Part shown: positions 53,946-64,000 of the stretch, one piece after another | Layout of the letters: each line of letters starts with the position of its first letter | Position numbering within the stretch: the stretch's first letter is position 1 | Assembly (NCBI GenBank): GCA_965205485.1 | Contig: OZ242180.1 | Location: forward strand, 3,296,001-3,360,000 | Direction of reading: 5' to 3' | From: Candidatus Latescibacterota bacterium | GTDB taxonomy: Bacteria > Latescibacterota > UBA2968 > GCA-2709665 | DNA length: 64,000 bases | Translations under genes and position numbers: made by a program | The notes under the pieces: model-generated | Told to the model about the DNA's origin: nothing | Database searches by the model: none | Seen by the model: the letters and a program-made list of their open reading frames with translations, nothing else

Positions 53946-54680
53946 CTACAACGTCCCCACGGGGATTCCGTATGCCTCTTCAACCTGCTGGGTATCCACC
54001 ATTTCGATGGCCTCCCAGGGGCAGATGTGTACGCACTGGATACATCCGATACAGTCTTCCAGACGGACTTCACAGAACGTGCCGATGCCGTCCAGGCCGG
54101 CGTCGGCAACGTCAACTTCCTCGATACAGTCCGTCGGACAGACTTCGATGCAGGCGTTGCAGCCTGTGCAATAGTCCGGATTGATGATGGCGATATGCCG
54201 CGGCCGCTTCTTCTTGGCCGTCATGCCGGAGCGGGAATCCAGCCACAGGTGTTCGTGGTAGTCGACGCGTTCTTTTTTCGCGACCCGCTCCGGACGGTAG
54301 ACCTCTGACTTTGGAGCGAATTCCAGCGTGCCCTCCGCGTGGGCGTGGCTGAGGCGGTACCGGTCCGAGGTAACGAGCTGGTCGGGGTCGTCGTCGTAGA
54401 CGAAACTGACCATGTCGTAACGGATGCCCACGGTGCGTCCGGCGCGTCCGTTCAGTTTGAAATGGATTCCGGGCCTGAATTCCAGAATGGCAAGGCCGGC
54501 GGGTTCTTTTTCAACTTCCGCGACGGCAGTCGCGGCGTCCGATTCAGCTTTGGCCGCGTCGGGCGCGGCTTCCGCGGCGTCGCCAGCGCCCTCTTTGGCT
54601 TTCCGCATGGCTTCGGCCTTGGCCCTGGCGCGCGCCACCCGGTCGGAGATGTTGTCAAACTGGGTAAGGTCGACGTTCAC
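53946..54680 (-). CDS. 2x[4Fe-4S] ferredoxin-domain protein with a long N-terminal extension
   Basis: CTGCNACIEVCP and CIGCIQCVHICP. GTG at 54680 after GGAG. N-terminal DLTQFDNISDRVARARAKAEAMRKA motif. Confidence 0.88.
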   Translation of the reverse strand: MNVDLTQFDNISDRVARARAKAEAMRKAKEGAGDAAEAAPDAAKAESDAATAVAEVEKEPAGLAILEFRPGIHFKLNGRAGRTVGIRYDMVSFVYDDDPDQLVTSDRYRLSHAHAEGTLEFAPKSEVYRPERVAKKERVDYHEHLWLDSRSGMTAKKKRPRHIAIINPDYCTGCNACIEVCPTDCIEEVDVADAGLDGIGTFCEVRLEDCIGCIQCVHICPWEAIEMVDTQQVEEAYGIPVGTL

Positions 54681-54738
54681 TGAGTCGTTATCTCCGTCTT
54701 GAATGTGCCTGACTGCGTGACTCATACGATTCAGGGCT

Positions 54739-54848
54739 AAAATAAGGTCTTCCACCGGGGTTGTCAAGGATGAATCGGCGGCCGAACGGCGCGGAATTTC
54801 TGTGAAACAACACCGATCTTGACAGCGCGTGTGGCCTCTGGTTATATT
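54739..54848. promoter_or_regulatory. Back-to-back divergent sigma-70 promoters
   Basis: Minus: TTGACA(54767-54762)-17 nt-TATTTT. Plus: TTGACA(54819)-18 nt-TATATT(54843). Confidence 0.65.
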
Positions 54849-54916
54849 GGAACCCGTGTTCTTGCGGATCGGCTCGAACGTTAACACAACGTGTTTATTG
54901 ACACAGAGGCTGTGGT

Positions 54917-55825
54917 ATGGACCAACCGACTCCCGACGAGGAACTCAGAAAAATCGCCGAAGACGCCTCCGCCCCGGTTTCGGACGCGGACGTCTCGCGG
55001 GCAAGGCTGGTCTCGCAGTTCGTCATTTTTCCCGTGGCGATCATTCTGGTGGCGCTCGCAATATATCTGGGATTGGGGCTGTTGACGGTCGAGCGAAAAA
55101 CGGCGGAGGACTATCTCAATACAATTCGGGTGGGCGGAATCAACAGCCGGTGGCAGGCCGCGTACGAACTGGCCACCGTGCTGGACCAGGAACAGCGGGA
55201 AGGACGGATCGGCCGCAGGTTCGTCGGAGAGTTGATCCGGGTGTTCGAGGCCTCCCGGTCGGACGACCCCCGTGTCCGGCGCTTTCTGGCCGCGGCCATG
55301 GGGAGGGTGAGGGATCCCGAACTCGTGGGCGTTCTGATTGCAGCGCTGGACGATCCGGATGACGAAACGCGGATCAACGCGATGTTTTCACTCAGGGCGC
55401 AGGGAGATCCGGGGGCCGTACCGCACCTCATCAGGATCGCTTCGAACGACGATGCGGGACTGCGCAAGGCGGCGGTGTACGCCCTTGGAGGGCTGGACGA
55501 CCCCCTCGTGCCGCCGGCGCTGGAGCAGGCGCTTCACGACCGTGCGCCCGACGTTCGCTGGAACGCCGCCCTCCAGTTGGCCGTGGCGGGTAACAGCGCG
55601 GGCCTGGAGGTGCTGGAAGAGATGCTGAGCCCGGGGTACCTGGAAGGATTCGATCGTATAAGCGGCGAGGGGAGGCGCAATATCCTGGTCGAAGCGATCA
55701 GGGCCGTGGGCATGCTCAACGCGACGTCACTGGCCCCCGCGCTGCAGCGCCTTCGTGAGACAGACCCGGACCTGCGGGTCCGACAGGCGGCCATTGAAAT
55801 CCTGAATGGCTGGGAAGCGAAATGA
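54917..55825 (+). CDS. Membrane-anchored HEAT-repeat (PBS lyase-like) protein
   Basis: One N-terminal TM; repeats DPRVRRFLAAAMG, DETRINAMFSL, DVRWNAALQL, DLRVRQAA. Confidence 0.88.
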   Translation: MDQPTPDEELRKIAEDASAPVSDADVSRARLVSQFVIFPVAIILVALAIYLGLGLLTVERKTAEDYLNTIRVGGINSRWQAAYELATVLDQEQREGRIGRRFVGELIRVFEASRSDDPRVRRFLAAAMGRVRDPELVGVLIAALDDPDDETRINAMFSLRAQGDPGAVPHLIRIASNDDAGLRKAAVYALGGLDDPLVPPALEQALHDRAPDVRWNAALQLAVAGNSAGLEVLEEMLSPGYLEGFDRISGEGRRNILVEAIRAVGMLNATSLAPALQRLRETDPDLRVRQAAIEILNGWEAK

Positions 55826-55853
55826 GCGGCTGGAATCGATGGAATTGCAGTGG

Positions 55854-55895
55854 GGGATCCGGCCTGTACAGACTCGCGTCGGATCCCTCTTTTTT
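55854..55895 (+). terminator. Putative intrinsic terminator
   Basis: GGGATCCG...CGGATCCC followed by TCTTTTTT. Confidence 0.55.
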
Positions 55896-55931
55896 GTCCC
55901 CGGGCAGGCGCGAATCTTCCCAAAATCCCGC

Positions 55932-55960
55932 TTGACAATTCGGGGTGGTTTGGATATATT
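55932..55960 (+). promoter_or_regulatory. Sigma-70 promoter of the Rieske/cytochrome b operon
   Basis: TTGACA-17 nt-TATATT. Confidence 0.72.
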
Positions 55961-56083
55961 GGCCCGGTGCCGGTGGCGCCGTAAGTGATGCAATTTCCGG
56001 TATTTCTTTAACTTATATCGTTTATTATTCAGTCCTGACGAATTCCCGCACAAAAACCGACCGCCCGGTTTCCGGGGTGCCCA

Positions 56084-57034
56084 ATGGCGGAAGATAAAAT
56101 CGACCTTTCGGAATTCGACGAAATACCCGATCGGGTGGCCAGGGCCAAGGCCAAGGCGGAAGCGCTTCGCAAGGCCCGGGAGGCCGCCGGAGGCGAAACG
56201 TCCGCGCCGAAGCCGGCCGACGAAGCTCCCGCGCAGGCCCCGGCCGAACCGGGTGGAGATTCCGGGCCATCCGAAGTGGATCTTTCGTCGCTGGACGAGA
56301 TCCAGGACCGCGTTGCCCGTGCGAAGGCCAAAGCCGAGTTGATGCGAAAGGCCCGCGGGAGTGGTGGAGCGGCGCCCGCACGCGCGCCGGTCAAGAAAGC
56401 CGCGTCCACCGCGGACCGCGCCGCCGCCGCCCGGGCTTTAACTCAGAAGACCGACGAGCCGGCCGCGGAGCGCGTGATCGTGCAGACCTCGCCGGCGCCG
56501 CCCGAAATCCGCCCCGGTCCGGAGAGAACGCAGGCCGTTGCCGAAGGCGGCATGACCACCCGGCGCGGGTTTTTCACCTGGCTGACCCTTGCGTGGGCGT
56601 CGTTCGCGGTCGCGTCCGGCGCCGGGCTCCTGGGTTTTGCGCGCTTCCTGTTTCCGAACGTGCTGTTTGAGCCGCCGCAGTCTTTCAAGATCGGGTTTGC
56701 GGAAGATTACGACCTGGGCGTGGACGAACGCTGGAAAGACAAGTTCAGCGTCTGGATTGTCAAGACCACGCAGGACATGTTCGCGCTCATTTCGGTGTGC
56801 ACGCATCTGGGGTGTACGCCCAACTGGCTGGGCAACGAACAGAAATTCAAGTGTCCCTGCCACGGCAGCGGATTTTATATGACGGGCATCAACTTCGAGG
56901 GTCCGGCCCCGCGTCCGCTGGAACGGGCGCGCATCGTGCTGGCCGAGGACGGGCAGGTGCTGGTCGACAAGACCCGCAAATTCCTGTACGAGAAGGGTCA
57001 CTGGGACAATCCGGAGTCCTTTTTGCGGATCTGA
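56084..57034 (+). CDS. petC: Rieske Fe-S subunit of a Rieske/cytochrome b complex, with a ~155-aa N-terminal extension
   Basis: Internal Tat motif TRRGFF plus TM; CTHLGC and CPCHGS. Confidence 0.93.
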   Translation: MAEDKIDLSEFDEIPDRVARAKAKAEALRKAREAAGGETSAPKPADEAPAQAPAEPGGDSGPSEVDLSSLDEIQDRVARAKAKAELMRKARGSGGAAPARAPVKKAASTADRAAAARALTQKTDEPAAERVIVQTSPAPPEIRPGPERTQAVAEGGMTTRRGFFTWLTLAWASFAVASGAGLLGFARFLFPNVLFEPPQSFKIGFAEDYDLGVDERWKDKFSVWIVKTTQDMFALISVCTHLGCTPNWLGNEQKFKCPCHGSGFYMTGINFEGPAPRPLERARIVLAEDGQVLVDKTRKFLYEKGHWDNPESFLRI

Positions 57035-57061
57035 ACGGGGCAGACGGCGGAATCGCCCTTA

Positions 57062-57223
57062 GAAGCTGTCTTAAAATTCCCAGCGGTCTTCGCACGGCTG
57101 CAAAAGCGCCGGTCGGCGTTGGTCAAATCCACCCGTATAGACAAATATGGGCGGATTTTCCCGCCTTGACCGCCACTTTTTCGCTCGCGCTCGGGAACTC
57201 ACCGGTAATTTTAAAACAGCTTC
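57062..57223 (+). mobile_element. MITE family 1, internally shortened copy (162 bp)
   Basis: TIRs GAAGCTGTCTTAAAATT / AATTTTAAAACAGCTTC, TTA on both flanks, net 27 bp shorter than the 6000 copy. Confidence 0.9.
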
Positions 57224-57278
57224 TTAACACGTTTTTCTTTTCTGTTTCAGCATCGCGGTACAATCGGGAGAATACGGT

Positions 57279-58064
57279 ATGCCGAAGATCTCGGGCCTTC
57301 TGGACCGGACCAAGCGCTCTCAGATCTGGAAGTCCATCTTCAGGCACGACGTGCCGAGAGACGAACGCGGTCGCGCGCAGGTGGTGCTGACCAACGTATT
57401 CTTGCATCTGCATCCCGTGCGCACGCCAAAATCGGGAATCAGGGTGCGCTACACGTGGTGTATGGGCGGGCTCACCTTCTTTATTTTTCTGATCGAGACC
57501 ATCACGGGCATTCTGCTCATGTTCTACTACCGGCCCACCCTCGAATACGCCTATACGGACATCATCGATCTGGGCGAGCAGGTGCCGCTGGGAATCATGC
57601 GGGAGATTCACCGATGGGGCGCCCACGCGATGATCATTACGGTCTGGCTGCACATGTTGCGCGTGTTCATGACGGGATCGTACAAGCCACCCCGCGAATT
57701 CAACTGGGCGATCGGCGTCATTCTGCTGCTTCTGACGTTGCTGTTGAGCTTTACAGGGTACCTGCTGCCCTGGGACCAGCTTGCCATCTGGGCCATTACG
57801 GTGGGGTCGAATATGGCGCGGGCAACCCCTTTTCTCGGTCACGAGGGGCCCGGAGCGGCATTCCTTGTGCTTGGCGATATCAATCTGGTGCACGCAGGCG
57901 ACGATGCCCGATTCGCGCTGTTGGGGGGCCGCTTTGTCGGGGAAGGCGCGCTGCTGAGGTTTTATGTCCTGCATTGCCTCTTCATCCCGTTCGTGGCGGC
58001 TGTACTCATGGCCGTTCACTTCTGGCGGGTCCGAAAGGACGGCGGAATATCCGGACCGATGTAG
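57279..58064 (+). CDS. petB: Cytochrome b, N-terminal (b6-type) subunit
   Basis: Heme His pairs IHRWGAH...LHM and LHC...VHF (14 residues between), TGYLLPWDQ, and WCMGG (heme ci Cys position). Confidence 0.93.
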
Positions 58065-58109: not shown

Positions 58110-59186
58110 ATGGACTTACTGAAGGGCTTCGTCAACTGGCTTCTCACGCCTGAATATTTCCTGCCGTTGTTTGCCATTCTCTTCTTTCTGGCTTTGCGGA
58201 CCCGCTGGGTATGGACGGTCCGTTTCGGCCTCCCCGCCCTGATCGCCTCGATCGTATTCTTCCTTGTAAGTTTCCAGGATGAGAATTTCCGCATCATCGT
58301 GACCAAGGGTGACAATATCCCCATTGTCATGTTGCTGTTTCTGGTGGGTTTCTTTGTCTGGTACAGCCTGAAACAGGGGTACGACAACGACGAACGCATC
58401 GCGCGGGGCGAAGGGCCGGTTGAGAAGGCGGAATTCAAGGAGAAGGTCCTCACCTGGCCCCATCTGGTCTACACGGAGTTGATCTGTCTGACCCTTGCGA
58501 CAGTCTTCCTGATTCTCTGGTCCGTGCTCATCAAGGCGCCCATCGAGGAGCCGGCCAACCCGGCGAAAACCCCCAACCCGTCAAAGGCGCCCTGGTATTT
58601 CCTGGGGCTGCAGGAAATGCTGGTGTATTACGATCCGTGGATTGCGGGGGTCGTCCTGCCCACCCTTGTCATCGTGGGCCTCATGGCCATTCCGTATATA
58701 GACCGGAATCCCAGGGGGCTGGGTTACTATACGTTCAAGGAACGCCGGTTCGCCATTACGGTGTTCCTGTTCGGTTTTGTGGTGTTATGGGTGATGCTGA
58801 TCATGATCGGTACGTTTCTGCGCGGTCCGAACTGGAACTTTTTCGGGCCATACGAATTCTGGGACGTACACAAACTGGAAGCGCTGGTCAACGTCAATCT
58901 TTCGGAGTATATCTACGTCCAATGGCTGGGTACGGGACTGCCATCCTTCTGGCTGACGCGCGAGATATGGGGTTTCCTGCTGGTCATCCTGTACTTTCTA
59001 TTGCCGCCCCCATTGCTTGCGCAAACGGTGTTCAAGGATTTCTACAAGAACATGGGATTCGCTCGCTTTAGCGTGATGGTTTTCTTCTTCCTCTGCATGG
59101 TCGCCCTCCCCATCAAGATGTTGCTTCGCTGGCTGTTCAACCTGAAATACATTGTCGCCATTCCGGAATATTTCTTCAATATCTGA
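58110..59186 (+). CDS. petD: Cytochrome b C-terminal subunit (subunit IV-like, extended)
   Basis: ANPAKTPNPSKAPWYFLGLQEML (PEWY-equivalent), IPYIDRNP, FLRGPNW; extra TM helices. Confidence 0.85.
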   Translation: MDLLKGFVNWLLTPEYFLPLFAILFFLALRTRWVWTVRFGLPALIASIVFFLVSFQDENFRIIVTKGDNIPIVMLLFLVGFFVWYSLKQGYDNDERIARGEGPVEKAEFKEKVLTWPHLVYTELICLTLATVFLILWSVLIKAPIEEPANPAKTPNPSKAPWYFLGLQEMLVYYDPWIAGVVLPTLVIVGLMAIPYIDRNPRGLGYYTFKERRFAITVFLFGFVVLWVMLIMIGTFLRGPNWNFFGPYEFWDVHKLEALVNVNLSEYIYVQWLGTGLPSFWLTREIWGFLLVILYFLLPPPLLAQTVFKDFYKNMGFARFSVMVFFFLCMVALPIKMLLRWLFNLKYIVAIPEYFFNI

Positions 59187-59291
59187 GGATTCCTGTTTGT
59201 CTTCCGGCGCTGCTGCAGCATACCGTGGAATTTCTGAAGGGGTTGGTGGACGCGGCACTAAGGGCATATGCCGCCTCCCTGGAGCCGTTCG

Positions 59292-62200
59292 ATGAATGAG
59301 CCGAGGCGCTTCATAGACTTTGTCTACAACGTAGACAAAATGAACATGATTTTCGCCATCTCCAGCGTGGTGCTGGTTATCGCCGTGGTCTGGATGGTCT
59401 GGGACGACTACGACCGGGAATGGAAGGGTTTTCAGCGGGAGGCGATGGCGCTGGAGGCCTATAACACCGAGGCGGAAATCAAACTGGCGCAGGAGAACAT
59501 CGATCAGGACGCGCTGAAATCGATTGAGGACGAACTTGCGGGAATCGAGGCGTCGATCCAGGCGCACCAGAAACGATTCGATTCGGCAACGGCCGAGTTG
59601 AAGCGGCTCACACAAGCGGAGTGGTACAGCGCCGATCAGAGGCTGAAGTTCGAAAAAGCGCAATACGACGTGGTGAAGTTTGAGTATGAAGACGCTGCCA
59701 AAGCGGGACGTAAGAAAACGGCGGCGAAGAAAAAGGCCGAGATGGAGGTTATGGAGGCCCGGATTTACGAATTCCGGCTGGCTCTGGAGGCCGTGGAAGA
59801 AAAGCAGGCCGCGCAGCAGAAGATCATCGACGACGTCGCCGGGCAGCGACAGGCGCTGGAGTCCAGGCGGCGCTCGCTGAATAAGGATGAAGACAACCTG
59901 AGGCGCAAATTGACGGGTCTTGTGCCCAGTTTCCCCAACGTGTTCCGAAACCTGCCGATGGTGGATTTCATCGATCCATCCATCAAGGTACGGCAGGTCG
60001 TCCTGGCCGATCTGAGGAACGAACTCAACTTTACCCGGGTTCCGCGGGTGGACCGGTGTACCACGTGTCACGTAAACATCGACCGTCCGGGCTACGAGCT
60101 GGACCCGGAATCCGGCTGGTTCAGGAATGAAACCCTCAAAACCTACATGGAGACGGTCTACGCGGATCAAGACGTCCGGCTCGGCCGAACCCGGGCGTTT
60201 GCCACCCATCCGAGGCTGGATCTCTTCCTGAGCAGCGGCTCGCCCCATCCGATCGACGAGTCAGGGTGCACCACCTGTCATCTCGGTCGCGACCGGGGGG
60301 TGACGTTCAAGAATACCGCCCATACGCCGAGCGACGACGTCGAGGCCGCCCGCTGGAAGAAGCTGTACGGCTGGAAGAAGATGAAATACTGGGACCACCC
60401 GATGCTGCCCGGCCGCTACGTGGAATCCACGTGCGCACAATGCCACGCGGGCGTTGTCGACGTGCCGGAGGCGGACGATCTGAATCGCGGCATCCATCTC
60501 GTGCGCACGCTGGGTTGCCACGGTTGCCACAAGATCGCGAAACACACGCTTCAGGACCTGCGCAAGGTCGGGCCGGACCTGCGCAAGGCAGCCGGCAAAC
60601 TGGATCAGAATTGGGCCGTGAAGTGGGTGCGTGACCCCAAGGGGTTCCGGCCATCCACCAGGATGCCCAAGATTTTCGATCTGGCCAACGTGAGCGGGCC
60701 TGAAGATATCGCCCGCAATACGGCCGCGGTCAACGCCGTTGTGACGTATATCTTCGACAAGTCCGAACGGCCCGAGTACCCGACGCCGCCCGTACAGGGC
60801 GATGCAGGCCGGGGCGAGCGCCTCGTCGAAATGGTGGGCTGCAAGGCGTGCCACGTGGTGGGCGCGGACGACAAGTTGGGCCAGGAGTACGGGCTGCGGA
60901 ACTTCGGACCGAACCTGAACGACGTGGGCAGCAAGCTGTCGGAGGGATGGCTGTTCGCATGGCTGAAGGAACCCACGGCCTATTTCCCCGATACACGGAT
61001 GCCGAATCTGCGGCTGACCGACCGTGAAGCGGCCGACATCACGGCCTATCTGCTCACCCTTCGGAATACGGAGTTTGAAGCGCGGCAGGTGGCGGCGGTG
61101 GACCCGCAGGTGCGCGACGACCTGGTGTTGAACTATCTGCGCAGCAGGCTGCCCGTGAAGACCGCGAAGGAACAACTGGATCAGATGTCCGGCCATGAGC
61201 GGGACATCTGGCTGGGCGAGAAGATTATCTCCCGGCAGGGCTGCTTCGGGTGCCACCTCATCCCTGGGTTTGAAGATACACAGCCCATCGGCACGGAACT
61301 GACCGAAGAAGGCAGCAAGGACCTGGACAAGCTGGATTTCGGTCTGCTGGCCAAAAAGCCGGGTTCCTACAACACCGATCCCGACGCCATTCCCTATACG
61401 CGACACGACTGGTTCTATAAAAAGCTCAAACAGCCCCGGGTCTTCGACAAAGGTAAGGTGAAGCTGTACGACGACAAGCTGCGCATGCCCCAGTTCGGTC
61501 TGAGCGACGAGGATGCGCACGCGCTGACTACGGCGCTGCTTAGCATGAACAGGAGCCAGGCGGGCACCGATGCAATCAAGCGCCTGTCTCCCGATGAAGT
61601 CGATATCGAGAAGGGCCGCTGGCTGGTCTACGACAGGAACTGCAAGGGCTGCCACGTTGTGGAGAATCAGGGCGGGGCCATCCAGGATCCTCTCGTGGAG
61701 GCGTACGGAGACGAGGAAGTCCCGGCCGCCGACGCCGTGGGATTCGTGCCGCCGTCCCTCAACGGAGAGGGCAGGAAGGTGCAGCCGGACTGGTTCTTCG
61801 CCTTTCTGAAGAACGTGCAGCCTGTCCGACCGTGGCTCGAGGTGCGGATGCCCACGTTCGGTTTCGAAGACCCGCAGGCCATCGACCTGGTCACCTATTT
61901 TTCGCGTCTGGACAAGGAGCAGTTCCCCTACGCGACCTTTGTGGATAAACATTTGAGCTCAAAAGAGATGCGCGGCGCGAAGAGGCTGTTCAGCGCGGAT
62001 ATCTACAACTGTTTCACCTGCCACCAGCAGGGCGATATCAAGCCCACGGGCGATCCGGCAAGCTGGGCGCCCGACCTGAAACTGTCCAGGGAGCGGTTGA
62101 AGCCCGCGTGGATCAGGGACTGGCTGTGGGATCCGCAGAAGCTGCAGCCGGGCACCAAGATGCCCACGTTCTTCGGCGACGAAATGACCTACCTCCCCGA

Positions 62201-62345
62201 GGAAATGGCCGCCTATCTGAAGCTGCCCGAGGGGGTCAGGCCCGAGGACGGCCTGCTCGTATTGCCGACCGACGTCGTCATCGAGGCGCTCACCGACTAC
62301 ATCATCCACGGCCTCCACCAGGATTCACGGCTCACCAGACGATAG
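59292..62345 (+). CDS. Membrane-anchored multiheme cytochrome c (8 CxxCH) with a coiled-coil region
   Basis: CTTCH x2, CAQCH, CHGCH, CKACH, CFGCH, CKGCH, CFTCH; N-terminal TM; repeated GPxL...MP class I cyt c motifs. Confidence 0.92.
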   Translation: MNEPRRFIDFVYNVDKMNMIFAISSVVLVIAVVWMVWDDYDREWKGFQREAMALEAYNTEAEIKLAQENIDQDALKSIEDELAGIEASIQAHQKRFDSATAELKRLTQAEWYSADQRLKFEKAQYDVVKFEYEDAAKAGRKKTAAKKKAEMEVMEARIYEFRLALEAVEEKQAAQQKIIDDVAGQRQALESRRRSLNKDEDNLRRKLTGLVPSFPNVFRNLPMVDFIDPSIKVRQVVLADLRNELNFTRVPRVDRCTTCHVNIDRPGYELDPESGWFRNETLKTYMETVYADQDVRLGRTRAFATHPRLDLFLSSGSPHPIDESGCTTCHLGRDRGVTFKNTAHTPSDDVEAARWKKLYGWKKMKYWDHPMLPGRYVESTCAQCHAGVVDVPEADDLNRGIHLVRTLGCHGCHKIAKHTLQDLRKVGPDLRKAAGKLDQNWAVKWVRDPKGFRPSTRMPKIFDLANVSGPEDIARNTAAVNAVVTYIFDKSERPEYPTPPVQGDAGRGERLVEMVGCKACHVVGADDKLGQEYGLRNFGPNLNDVGSKLSEGWLFAWLKEPTAYFPDTRMPNLRLTDREAADITAYLLTLRNTEFEARQVAAVDPQVRDDLVLNYLRSRLPVKTAKEQLDQMSGHERDIWLGEKIISRQGCFGCHLIPGFEDTQPIGTELTEEGSKDLDKLDFGLLAKKPGSYNTDPDAIPYTRHDWFYKKLKQPRVFDKGKVKLYDDKLRMPQFGLSDEDAHALTTALLSMNRSQAGTDAIKRLSPDEVDIEKGRWLVYDRNCKGCHVVENQGGAIQDPLVEAYGDEEVPAADAVGFVPPSLNGEGRKVQPDWFFAFLKNVQPVRPWLEVRMPTFGFEDPQAIDLVTYFSRLDKEQFPYATFVDKHLSSKEMRGAKRLFSADIYNCFTCHQQGDIKPTGDPASWAPDLKLSRERLKPAWIRDWLWDPQKLQPGTKMPTFFGDEMTYLPEEMAAYLKLPEGVRPEDGLLVLPTDVVIEALTDYIIHGLHQDSRLTRR

Positions 62346-62400
62346 TTGGAACTTAGGCCGTCTTAACGATTGGAAATAATAGAGGAACGTCAGCCGGCGC

Positions 62401-63209: not shown

Positions 63210-63281
63210 GCGCAATCCTCAGGATCGACCATGCGGGGTGGGATTTCGGGTCCGCCCCCCATAAATACTGGAGGGTCCCGA

Positions 63282-64000
63282 ATGCAAGAAAAGGTGTACG
63301 GTTACTGGCTGCCAATTGACATCTCAACCCACGGCGCCGTCGTGGATTGGCTGATCAATTGGCTGCACGTGTTCATGATCGCGTTGTTTCTGGGTTGGGG
63401 CGTCTTCTTCGTCTACTGCCTTGTCCGCTACCGGAGGAGGGCGAACCCCGATGCGTCCTATGATCCCGTTAAGGGGAAAGTCGCCAAGTACGTGGAATAC
63501 GGCGTGATCGTCGTCGAGGCCGTGCTGCTGGTGGGACTGTCCATGCCGCTCTGGGCAGACTTCAAACACGCGTTTCCAAACGAATCCGAAGCGCTGGTGG
63601 TGCGGGTGGTGCCCGAGCAGTTTGCCTGGAATATCCACTACTCGGGGAAGGACGGGAAATTCGGACGGACGGCGCCCGAGTACGTGAGCGCCGAGAATCT
63701 GCTTGGGCTGGACCCCGACGATCCTGCCGGCAACGACGATTTCAATTCCATCAACAACCTGCATATCGTGAAGGACAGGCCCGTCATCGCGCACATTTCG
63801 TCGAAGGATGTCATTCACAGCTTTAAAATTCCCGTGATGCGCCTGACGCAGGATGCGATTCCCGGACAGGACATCCGGATCTGGTTCGAGGCAACCAGGG
63901 CCGGAACGTTCGACATCGCCTGTGCTCAATTGTGCGGTCTGGGGCACTATCGCATGCGCGGGCAGTTGACGGTGGAGTCGGAAGAGGCGTTTCAGGCCTG
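63282..64000 (+). CDS. coxB: Cytochrome c oxidase subunit II, 3'-truncated by the window edge
   Basis: Absent from the ORF track because it has no stop. Reads MQEKVYGYWLPIDISTHG..., two TMs, EQFAW, SKDVIHSF, DAIPG, CuA motif CAQLCGLGHYRM. Confidence 0.93.
   Translation, partial: MQEKVYGYWLPIDISTHGAVVDWLINWLHVFMIALFLGWGVFFVYCLVRYRRRANPDASYDPVKGKVAKYVEYGVIVVEAVLLVGLSMPLWADFKHAFPNESEALVVRVVPEQFAWNIHYSGKDGKFGRTAPEYVSAENLLGLDPDDPAGNDDFNSINNLHIVKDRPVIAHISSKDVIHSFKIPVMRLTQDAIPGQDIRIWFEATRAGTFDIACAQLCGLGHYRMRGQLTVESEEAFQA

Follow-up and report, generated by a model that had tools for sequence, protein, structure and literature searches.

Closest described systems and how the locus compares

In photosynthetic complex I, the SH3-like subunit NdhS is described as the docking site for ferredoxin (PMC9283085). 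For 11-subunit complex I, PMC3144371 reports that no designated electron-input partner has been found and suggests that extensions of NuoC, limited to Bacillaceae, contact partner proteins. Among b6f-type complexes, those of the APWY clade combine a split cytochrome b and subunit IV with WCMGG (CxGG) and APWY motifs and a multiheme cytochrome c. Here, we analyzed a 64,000-nucleotide stretch of Candidatus Latescibacterota bacterium (assembly GCA_965205485.1, contig OZ242180.1, forward-strand positions 3,296,001 to 3,360,000; hereafter the window), in which an unnamed 26-residue motif (the tag) occurs once on a ferredoxin fusion protein and twice on the Rieske protein of a neighboring b6-type complex.

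The Rieske/cytochrome b genes of the window share all of the listed features of the APWY clade, for which the accessible parts of PMC4122944 and PMC5600118 mention neither a tagged Rieske tail nor a linked ferredoxin adaptor. Like NdhS (CRR31), the fusion ties an SH3-like barrel to ferredoxin at a quinone-reducing membrane complex; unlike NdhS, its barrel bears the tag, has a 2x[4Fe-4S] ferredoxin of its own, either as fusion partner or as a co-encoded protein, and is associated with an operon for Rieske and cytochrome b. The Bacillaceae NuoC N-terminal extension resembles the tag in extending the Q-module of a complex I that has no NuoEFG, and in its proposed role in partner contact, but the tag is also found on Rieske/cytochrome b complexes. 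A comparison of 13 short tag pieces with NCBIfam, including NF005832, recovered no family, although whole-protein models score short pieces poorly.

In 2-oxoacid dehydrogenases, the E2 chains hold their partner enzymes by way of basic residues in the peripheral subunit-binding domain (E3_binding). As modeled, the tag resembles this domain in being a small helical module between Ala/Pro-rich disordered linkers, and differs in being common to unrelated proteins and in hanging on membrane respiratory complexes. The Pfam E3_binding model gave no match to whole proteins or to the tag alone at E values up to 0.5-1; on this reading, the tag would work like a peripheral subunit-binding domain but is not a member. 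An earlier note on this DNA had also seen a likeness to RnfC repeats. The C-terminal repeats of Escherichia coli RsxC (RnfC) are likewise basic, Ala-rich helices on flexible tails, in that case of an ion-pumping redox complex, and have the letters ARAKA in common with the tag, but they lack its DL..F/L.D.I loop and Asp-Arg start. None of the three tag profiles tried (A2, broad and distant-only) scored E. coli RsxC in HMMER, and the proposed likeness was not borne out.

The same note did not recognize the motif as a named domain, and our searches agree. Neither Pfam nor NCBIfam matched the tag when the tag and its proteins were searched, apart from weak WASH_WAHD rows (E 0.004-0.5) below the cut-off. 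Sequence searches of the PDB with the tag returned three chance matches at E 3-6 in one case and none in another, and the ESM Atlas, queried with the Rieske tail and with a NuoI tail, gave no usable match. In the literature searched, whose coverage excluded subscription journals and supplements, and in the accessible text of PMC5449189 and PMC5317091, the motif was not described.

The tag is a selected module in three copies

The three copies lie at 54597..54674 (minus strand), at the N-terminus of the ferredoxin fusion, and at 56099..56176 and 56276..56353 (plus strand) on the Rieske protein, and they translate as previously reported. Pairwise, they match at 19, 19 and 20 of 26 residues but at only 52-57 of 78 bases, and hence they do not represent a recent DNA repeat. 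A profile built from them found no fourth copy among 93,138 six-frame open reading frames (ORFs) of the 5.13-Mb genome: the window copies scored 61-63 bits, which is by construction, and the next-best sequence about 11. Conversely, a profile from 14 NuoI and SRPBCC repeats of other lineages, themselves first found with a tag profile, ranked the three window copies at the top (domain E 4.6e-5 to 4.7e-3; next 3.6).

AlphaFold2 models each tag as a short and a long helix (predicted local distance difference test [pLDDT] 74-79) and places the linkers below 50, in accordance with the earlier idea of a modular helical tag. The predicted helices span residues 5-8 and 14-30 in the fusion, 9-13 and 17-35 in the first Rieske copy (pLDDT 76-77), and 76-91 in the second. 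In all window copies, the N-terminal half is acidic (-2 to -4) and the helix basic (+5). A further helix predicted in the Rieske tail (residues 109-120; 56411-56443, plus strand) opens with Asp-Arg within a conserved stretch, where the ratio of nonsynonymous to synonymous substitution rates (dN/dS) is 0.10, and may be left over from a degenerated tag copy.

Across 15 genus-level loci, dN/dS was 0.105 for the ferredoxin copy and 0.049 and 0.034 for the first and second Rieske copies, versus 0.447 and 0.516 in the linkers behind the first copies; the second Rieske linker stood at 0.10 and the folded parts at 0.015-0.05. The tag is under purifying selection, and is a real, selected and unnamed module.

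The tag is tied to one Rieske and ferredoxin locus in Latescibacterota

Tag copies were detected in 30 of 168 Latescibacterota genomes, and all 82 lie at the Rieske/ferredoxin locus (three copies in 22 genomes, two in 8). By family, the tag is present in 22/22 genomes of the window organism's own family, 6/31 of a second, and 2/3 of a third (f3), and is absent from eleven further families; with a broader profile, nothing in the phylum scored between 55 and 19.5 bits. The Rieske core was found in 34 of the 168 genomes, namely all 30 with the tag plus four that belong to no family of the class. Every genome of the class that holds this Rieske thus carries the tag (30/30), as expected of a motif conserved in orthologs. 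The ferredoxin domain occurs in the same 30 genomes, plus one 44% match with an internal stop, while 102 of 132 class genomes yielded none of the tag, the Rieske, or the ferredoxin domain with these queries. Five Rieske homologs without the tag (four genomes outside the class and a paralog in G079) had no SH3-like partner gene in the 15-16 kb fetched. In a 34-row Rieske tree, from which one truncated tagged Rieske was omitted, the tagged proteins form one supported clade (96/84) with family f3 as sister to the rest. Copy number changed later and swaps between the Rieske and partner genes (2+1, 1+1, 1+2).

The Rieske [2Fe-2S] protein (56084..57034, plus strand) carries both of its tags on a 157-residue N-terminal tail. 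As had been noted, these precede the twin-arginine motif (residue 158; 56555) and the predicted membrane helix (160-189). The two arginines are invariant in 39/39 aligned proteins, and their position directly before a single membrane helix is that of a Rieske protein exported by the twin-arginine translocation (Tat) pathway, with the N-tail predicted to stay cytoplasmic.

The tagged ferredoxin had been taken for a plain 2x[4Fe-4S] protein, and it is instead a 244-residue, three-part fusion (53946..54680, minus strand) in which the tag is followed by an acidic Ala/Pro linker, an SH3/Tudor/KOW-like beta barrel (residues ~61-124; 54309..54500, minus strand), a connector, and the 2x[4Fe-4S] domain (53949..54200, minus strand; net charge -14). 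Translation most likely starts at GTG 54680, with the tag at the extreme N-terminus, because homologs of the fusion begin at the tag; 45 of 47 fetched homologs are tagged. A hydropathy scan found no membrane helix in the fusion, at a threshold (1.6) that overlooked the Rieske membrane helix. The barrel is modeled at pLDDT 76-90 and aligns with split forms in which tag and SH3-like barrel are joined to a transmembrane segment (SH3-TM). Its fold matches (VIA) are generic, with Z scores of 5-7 (best 7.0, none at 8) and a root mean square deviation of about 2 over about 50 residues, the top ones including CarD and UvrD Tudor-like domains. The ferredoxin domain has two CxxCxxCxxxCP motifs and scores above the Fer4 cut-off, and was modeled poorly (pLDDT <50).

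Split forms illustrate how these parts belong together. In G077 and G079 (family f3), the partner protein combines the barrel with two tags and a membrane segment at its C-terminus and has no Fe-S motif, and a free ferredoxin gene (105 residues in G079), 79-82% identical to the window ferredoxin domain, lies directly behind it. The same arrangement was found in metagenome loci L117, L124, and L127. Since the split form keeps the tag with the cofactor-free half, the tag belongs to the adaptor and not to the Fe-S domain; and since the free ferredoxin gene directly follows the tag-SH3 gene, the tag, barrel, and ferredoxin travel as a unit. No other evidence argues as strongly as the split form for a ferredoxin that works together with the Rieske/cytochrome b complex, and the locus-level link between tag and ferredoxin is well supported by genomics. 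The linkage of tag, ferredoxin, and complex that had been proposed is strengthened by this anchored tag-SH3 protein with its adjacent ferredoxin; the proposed electron entry is one of two possible directions, the other being exit.

Tag carriers in other lineages and complex I

A 41-copy profile searched against 1.84 billion representatives gave 28 matches, 27 of them real; the remaining one, P0113, was rejected as a carrier because its match came from an unrelated repeat. A 13-row profile recovered 169 proteins among 7,995 scored candidates, with 120 of the 169 listed. A separate metagenome scan gave 31 loci. In a sample of 158 fetched proteins, which is no census, 152 carry the motif: under our own motif rules, these comprise 45 SH3-ferredoxin proteins, 41 Rieske proteins, 21 NuoI of the type that sources name Marinimicrobia, 15 SH3-TM proteins, 7 SRPBCC-type proteins as well as P0124 (named Fidelibacterota), 4 NuoI of other type, 2 NuoC, and 17 fragments or others. 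At L119, on a contig with 70% guanine-plus-cytosine (GC) content, the motif stands at the N-terminus of cytochrome b subunit IV. In other lineages, too, the motif is thus found at the termini of redox proteins (NuoI, NuoC, and subunit IV), but the 15 SH3-TM and eight SRPBCC-type carriers have no redox cofactor. Two SRPBCC-type proteins, P0123 and P0129, have four tags each, P0123 lacking a membrane helix; their barrel-like N-terminus gave no score with an SH3 profile.

A profile made from Latescibacterota copies only detected 14/14 chosen distant carriers at 15-71 bits, compared with at most 7.3 bits for window shuffles. The core shared across lineages reads I-x-D-R-h-x-R-(A/G/S)-K-A-K. Among 240 copies, R(+4) and K(+8) are each present in 240 and R/K(+1) in 239, counts that are biased because the profile that chose the matches had those residues fixed; helix charge is +2 or higher in all copies (mean +4.7). 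With this spacing on a helix, R(+1), R(+4), and K(+8) are predicted to share one face.

All 16 tagged NuoI and NuoC proteins tested scored best to the window genome's own untagged 11-subunit operon, which lacks nuoEFG, and the tagged complex I loci L116 and L121 read A-B-C-H-I-J-K-L. The 11-subunit operon of the window genome lies at G000:C1:4242905-4253681 (minus strand) and has neither nuoEFG nor tails. A second complex I operon of the same genome, with nuoEFG, was seen near 1.356-1.367 Mb, its nuoI apparently standing apart at 4.832 Mb.

A candidate docking arm

The tag probably brings the ferredoxin module to the Rieske/cytochrome b complex. As to how, we tentatively favor a tethered, portable docking arm whose Arg-Arg-Lys face would hold on to an acidic electron-transfer partner common to the tagged proteins. 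This mechanism fits best because the basic face is fixed across lineages, the tags do not co-drift, the fused ferredoxin keeps its tag, and the tag is placed where quinone-linked complexes have their cytoplasmic entry points. The 26-residue module, with its short and long helix on floppy linkers, would act as the arm, and a single external ligand would bring the Rieske tail and the ferredoxin fusion together on the cytoplasmic side of the b6-type complex. The likeliest such ligand is an acidic surface, belonging either to a soluble donor enzyme or to a ferredoxin-type domain. The fusion, which has no membrane anchor, would thereby reach the complex through its tag, and the SH3-like barrel may help to position the ferredoxin in the manner of NdhS in photosynthetic complex I. 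Between the ferredoxin and the quinone/heme ci site, electrons could then move in either direction: the downstream oxidase suggests forward respiration, while the APWY motif, linked to reverse operation in PMC4122944, points the other way. On NuoC and NuoI of complexes apparently without NuoEFG, the same arm may capture the missing electron donor.

Several observations weigh against a docking arm. The ligand is only a candidate and its binding putative, and the invariance of the basic residues carries the selection bias described above. The proposal does not account for eight SRPBCC-type carriers, which have 3-4 copies and for which an electron donor would be of no evident use. The absence of NuoEFG from tagged complex I rests on two operons, both also without nuoD, and the 11-subunit complex I of the window genome has no tag. 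Among ferredoxin homologs, P0046 has only a decayed tag and P0040, with an unrelated start, has none. Similarity of the barrel to NdhS amounts to Foldseek E values of 0.17-0.22 (6a7k, 6khi), with NdhS missing from 50 VIA rows and no Pfam match. The binding of heme ci by WCMGG cytochromes, which had been put forward as established, is unverified according to PMC4122944 (section 15). Finally, because the 30 genomes form one clade, the co-occurrence of tag, Rieske, and ferredoxin amounts to approximately one gain.

Alternative explanations

The main alternative is that tags bind each other: the copies on the Rieske tail and on the partner would zip together in antiparallel orientation, the acidic N-half of one along the basic helix of the other. 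This would hold the fusion or the SH3-TM adaptor directly at the complex and cluster tagged proteins in other lineages. The opposite charges of the two halves in the window copies would suit such pairing, which also accounts for the retention of the tag on the soluble fusion and is consistent with the copy-number swaps between the two genes. In addition, two different proteins in each lineage have that lineage's flavor of the tag (Rieske and SH3 partner; SRPBCC and NuoC P0157; NuoI and subunit IV of high-GC contigs), but duplication inside a genome would also produce this. Paired tags do not co-drift, however: identity between ferredoxin and Rieske tags was 0.748 within genomes (27 pairs) and 0.746 between genomes (785 pairs), which is what a fixed ligand outside the pair would lead one to expect. 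Nor do these values show concerted evolution among the copies. The conserved face is basic rather than hydrophobic and fixed across lineages, and the Rieske model (predicted template modeling score 0.41, linkers <50) shows no sign that its two tags form a packed unit, although this last point is a weak one. Co-folding of fusion residues 1-135 with Rieske residues 1-36 scored 0.00 twice, which speaks neither for nor against pairing, as the controls did not fold. We consider tag-tag pairing rather unlikely. It would have the same outcome at this locus as the docking arm, and delivery of the ferredoxin module to the complex is for that reason likelier than either mechanism alone.

Distinctly less likely is binding of the basic helix to polyanions (anionic lipid head groups, nucleic acid, or polyphosphate), whereby ferredoxin and complex would meet only by location in a membrane domain or at the nucleoid or ribosome. 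The mean helix charge of +4.7 is compatible with this, as is the finding that all carriers are membrane-bound or encoded beside membrane complexes. The CarD and UvrD Tudor-like fold matches of the barrel, and a ribosomal S3-like duplicated module at the same place in the G048 Rieske, point in the same direction. However, Arg at +4 and Lys at +8 never replace one another (240/240 each), unlike in generic polyanion binding, and the strict linkage to one ferredoxin gene would be left unexplained. The hydrophobic moment of the long helix is 0.01-0.06 in the window copies (mean 0.20, maximum 0.57 over 240 copies). Amphipathic targeting helices usually reach about 0.4 or more, and the window-copy helix is not amphipathic.

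An assembly or quality-control signal that recruits a chaperone or Fe-S maturation factor, or that delays Tat export, is very unlikely. Rieske, ferredoxin, and NuoI are all Fe-S proteins and the tag lies upstream of the twin-arginine motif, but no Fe-S cluster motif is present in the NuoC, subunit IV, SH3-TM, or SRPBCC carriers, the tag is missing from the genome's remaining Fe-S proteins, and the split form keeps it on the cofactor-free half. Scarcely credible is a low-complexity Ala/Lys/Arg helix with no binding role and a purely compositional likeness, since, although the tag is Ala-rich and set within Ala-rich linkers, its dN/dS of 0.03-0.10 largely refutes this, and 41 copies align without gaps over 31 columns, shuffled controls stay at or below 7.3 bits, and a clean score gap separates tags from the rest.

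Among specific partners for the docking arm, a MamK-family actin was rejected as a required one: it occurs in 31/168 genomes, of which 9 are among the 30 tag genomes and 22 are tag-less, and is absent from the window genome and its genus (0/15). Genes for MamA-like tetratricopeptide repeat, MamK-family actin (401.7 bits, cut-off 400), and ParB-like proteins adjoin the partner gene in some relatives (L113:5903-9114; L061:4473-7629; L060:8985-11924; L099:6087-9430); the actin gene of G077 (L060:9627-10508) has an internal gap or frame break, possibly an assembly fault. A formate dehydrogenase NuoEF-like subunit, considered as donor, is present in 28 of the 30 tag genomes (not in two f3 genomes at the threshold used) and in 54 tag-less ones, and within the second family in exactly the 6/31 tag-bearing genomes; it is neither singled out nor excluded. 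Genes resembling an NAD-linked formate dehydrogenase lie at G000:C1:4122276-4127674 (minus strand; L131). As for the HEAT-repeat protein encoded at the locus as a tag receptor, the tag families elsewhere show no HEAT neighbor in the loci seen, and G048 combines the HEAT gene with a Rieske that has no tag.

Genomic context

The HEAT-repeat protein (54917..55825, plus strand), with one N-terminal membrane helix (residues 35-53), is encoded between the partner and Rieske genes in 20/20 genome loci examined, all with identical gene order. Its short N-terminal segment ahead of the membrane helix (54917-55020, plus strand) appears conserved in several relatives. The ferredoxin gene had been described as transcribed divergently from the Rieske gene; it is divergent, but from the HEAT-repeat gene, and the ferredoxin, HEAT, and Rieske genes each have their own sigma-70-like site (three found versus 0.6 expected, by consensus match only). 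Those upstream of the fusion (54739..54767, minus strand) and the Rieske gene (55932..55960, plus strand) match the consensus at 10/12 and 11/12 positions, respectively.

Downstream of the Rieske gene, on the plus strand, follow the short b6-type cytochrome b (57279..58064; WCMGG at 57456), subunit IV with its APWY-type Qo motif (58110..59186), the multiheme cytochrome c with eight CxxCH motifs (59268..62345), and cytochrome c oxidase subunit II (63231..64000), with ORFs resembling subunits I and III continuing beyond the window. The element between the Rieske and cytochrome b genes (57045-57240) is likely a dispersed repeat; its translation recurs in the genome, for example near window position 62380 and at 4.833 Mb of the genome.

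Some relatives deviate around the Rieske gene. In G038, the HEAT and Rieske genes are separated by a transposase-like ORF piece (L024:5306-6022). The Rieske gene of G021 (L022:9886-10290) is broken at a run of N, possibly through an assembly fault. In G048, the HEAT gene is present beside an untagged Rieske whose N-tail (L090:8792-9856, minus strand) bears two copies of a different 40-residue module with a Ribosomal_S3_C match (E 1.1e-4); the module is 51% identical to the organism's own S3 gene over 37 residues (E 0.23).

Implications for electron input

Which protein feeds electrons into 11-subunit complex I is an open question (PMC3144371). The same is true of ferredoxin electron exchange with b6-type complexes outside photosynthesis. 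A 26-residue peptide common to both kinds of complex is a ready bait for the partner, as it can be synthesized with or without mutations at three residues, and the ferredoxin adaptors, fused or split, offer a defined four-protein system for reconstitution. It is possible, if doubtful, that the tag is part of a cross-phylum docking code, in which a portable peptide on NuoC, NuoI, Rieske, subunit IV, and adaptor proteins would recruit a soluble electron-input partner to 11-subunit complex I and b6-type complexes that have no fixed one. In Latescibacterota, such a code would build a ferredoxin branch on the Rieske/cytochrome b-oxidase chain.

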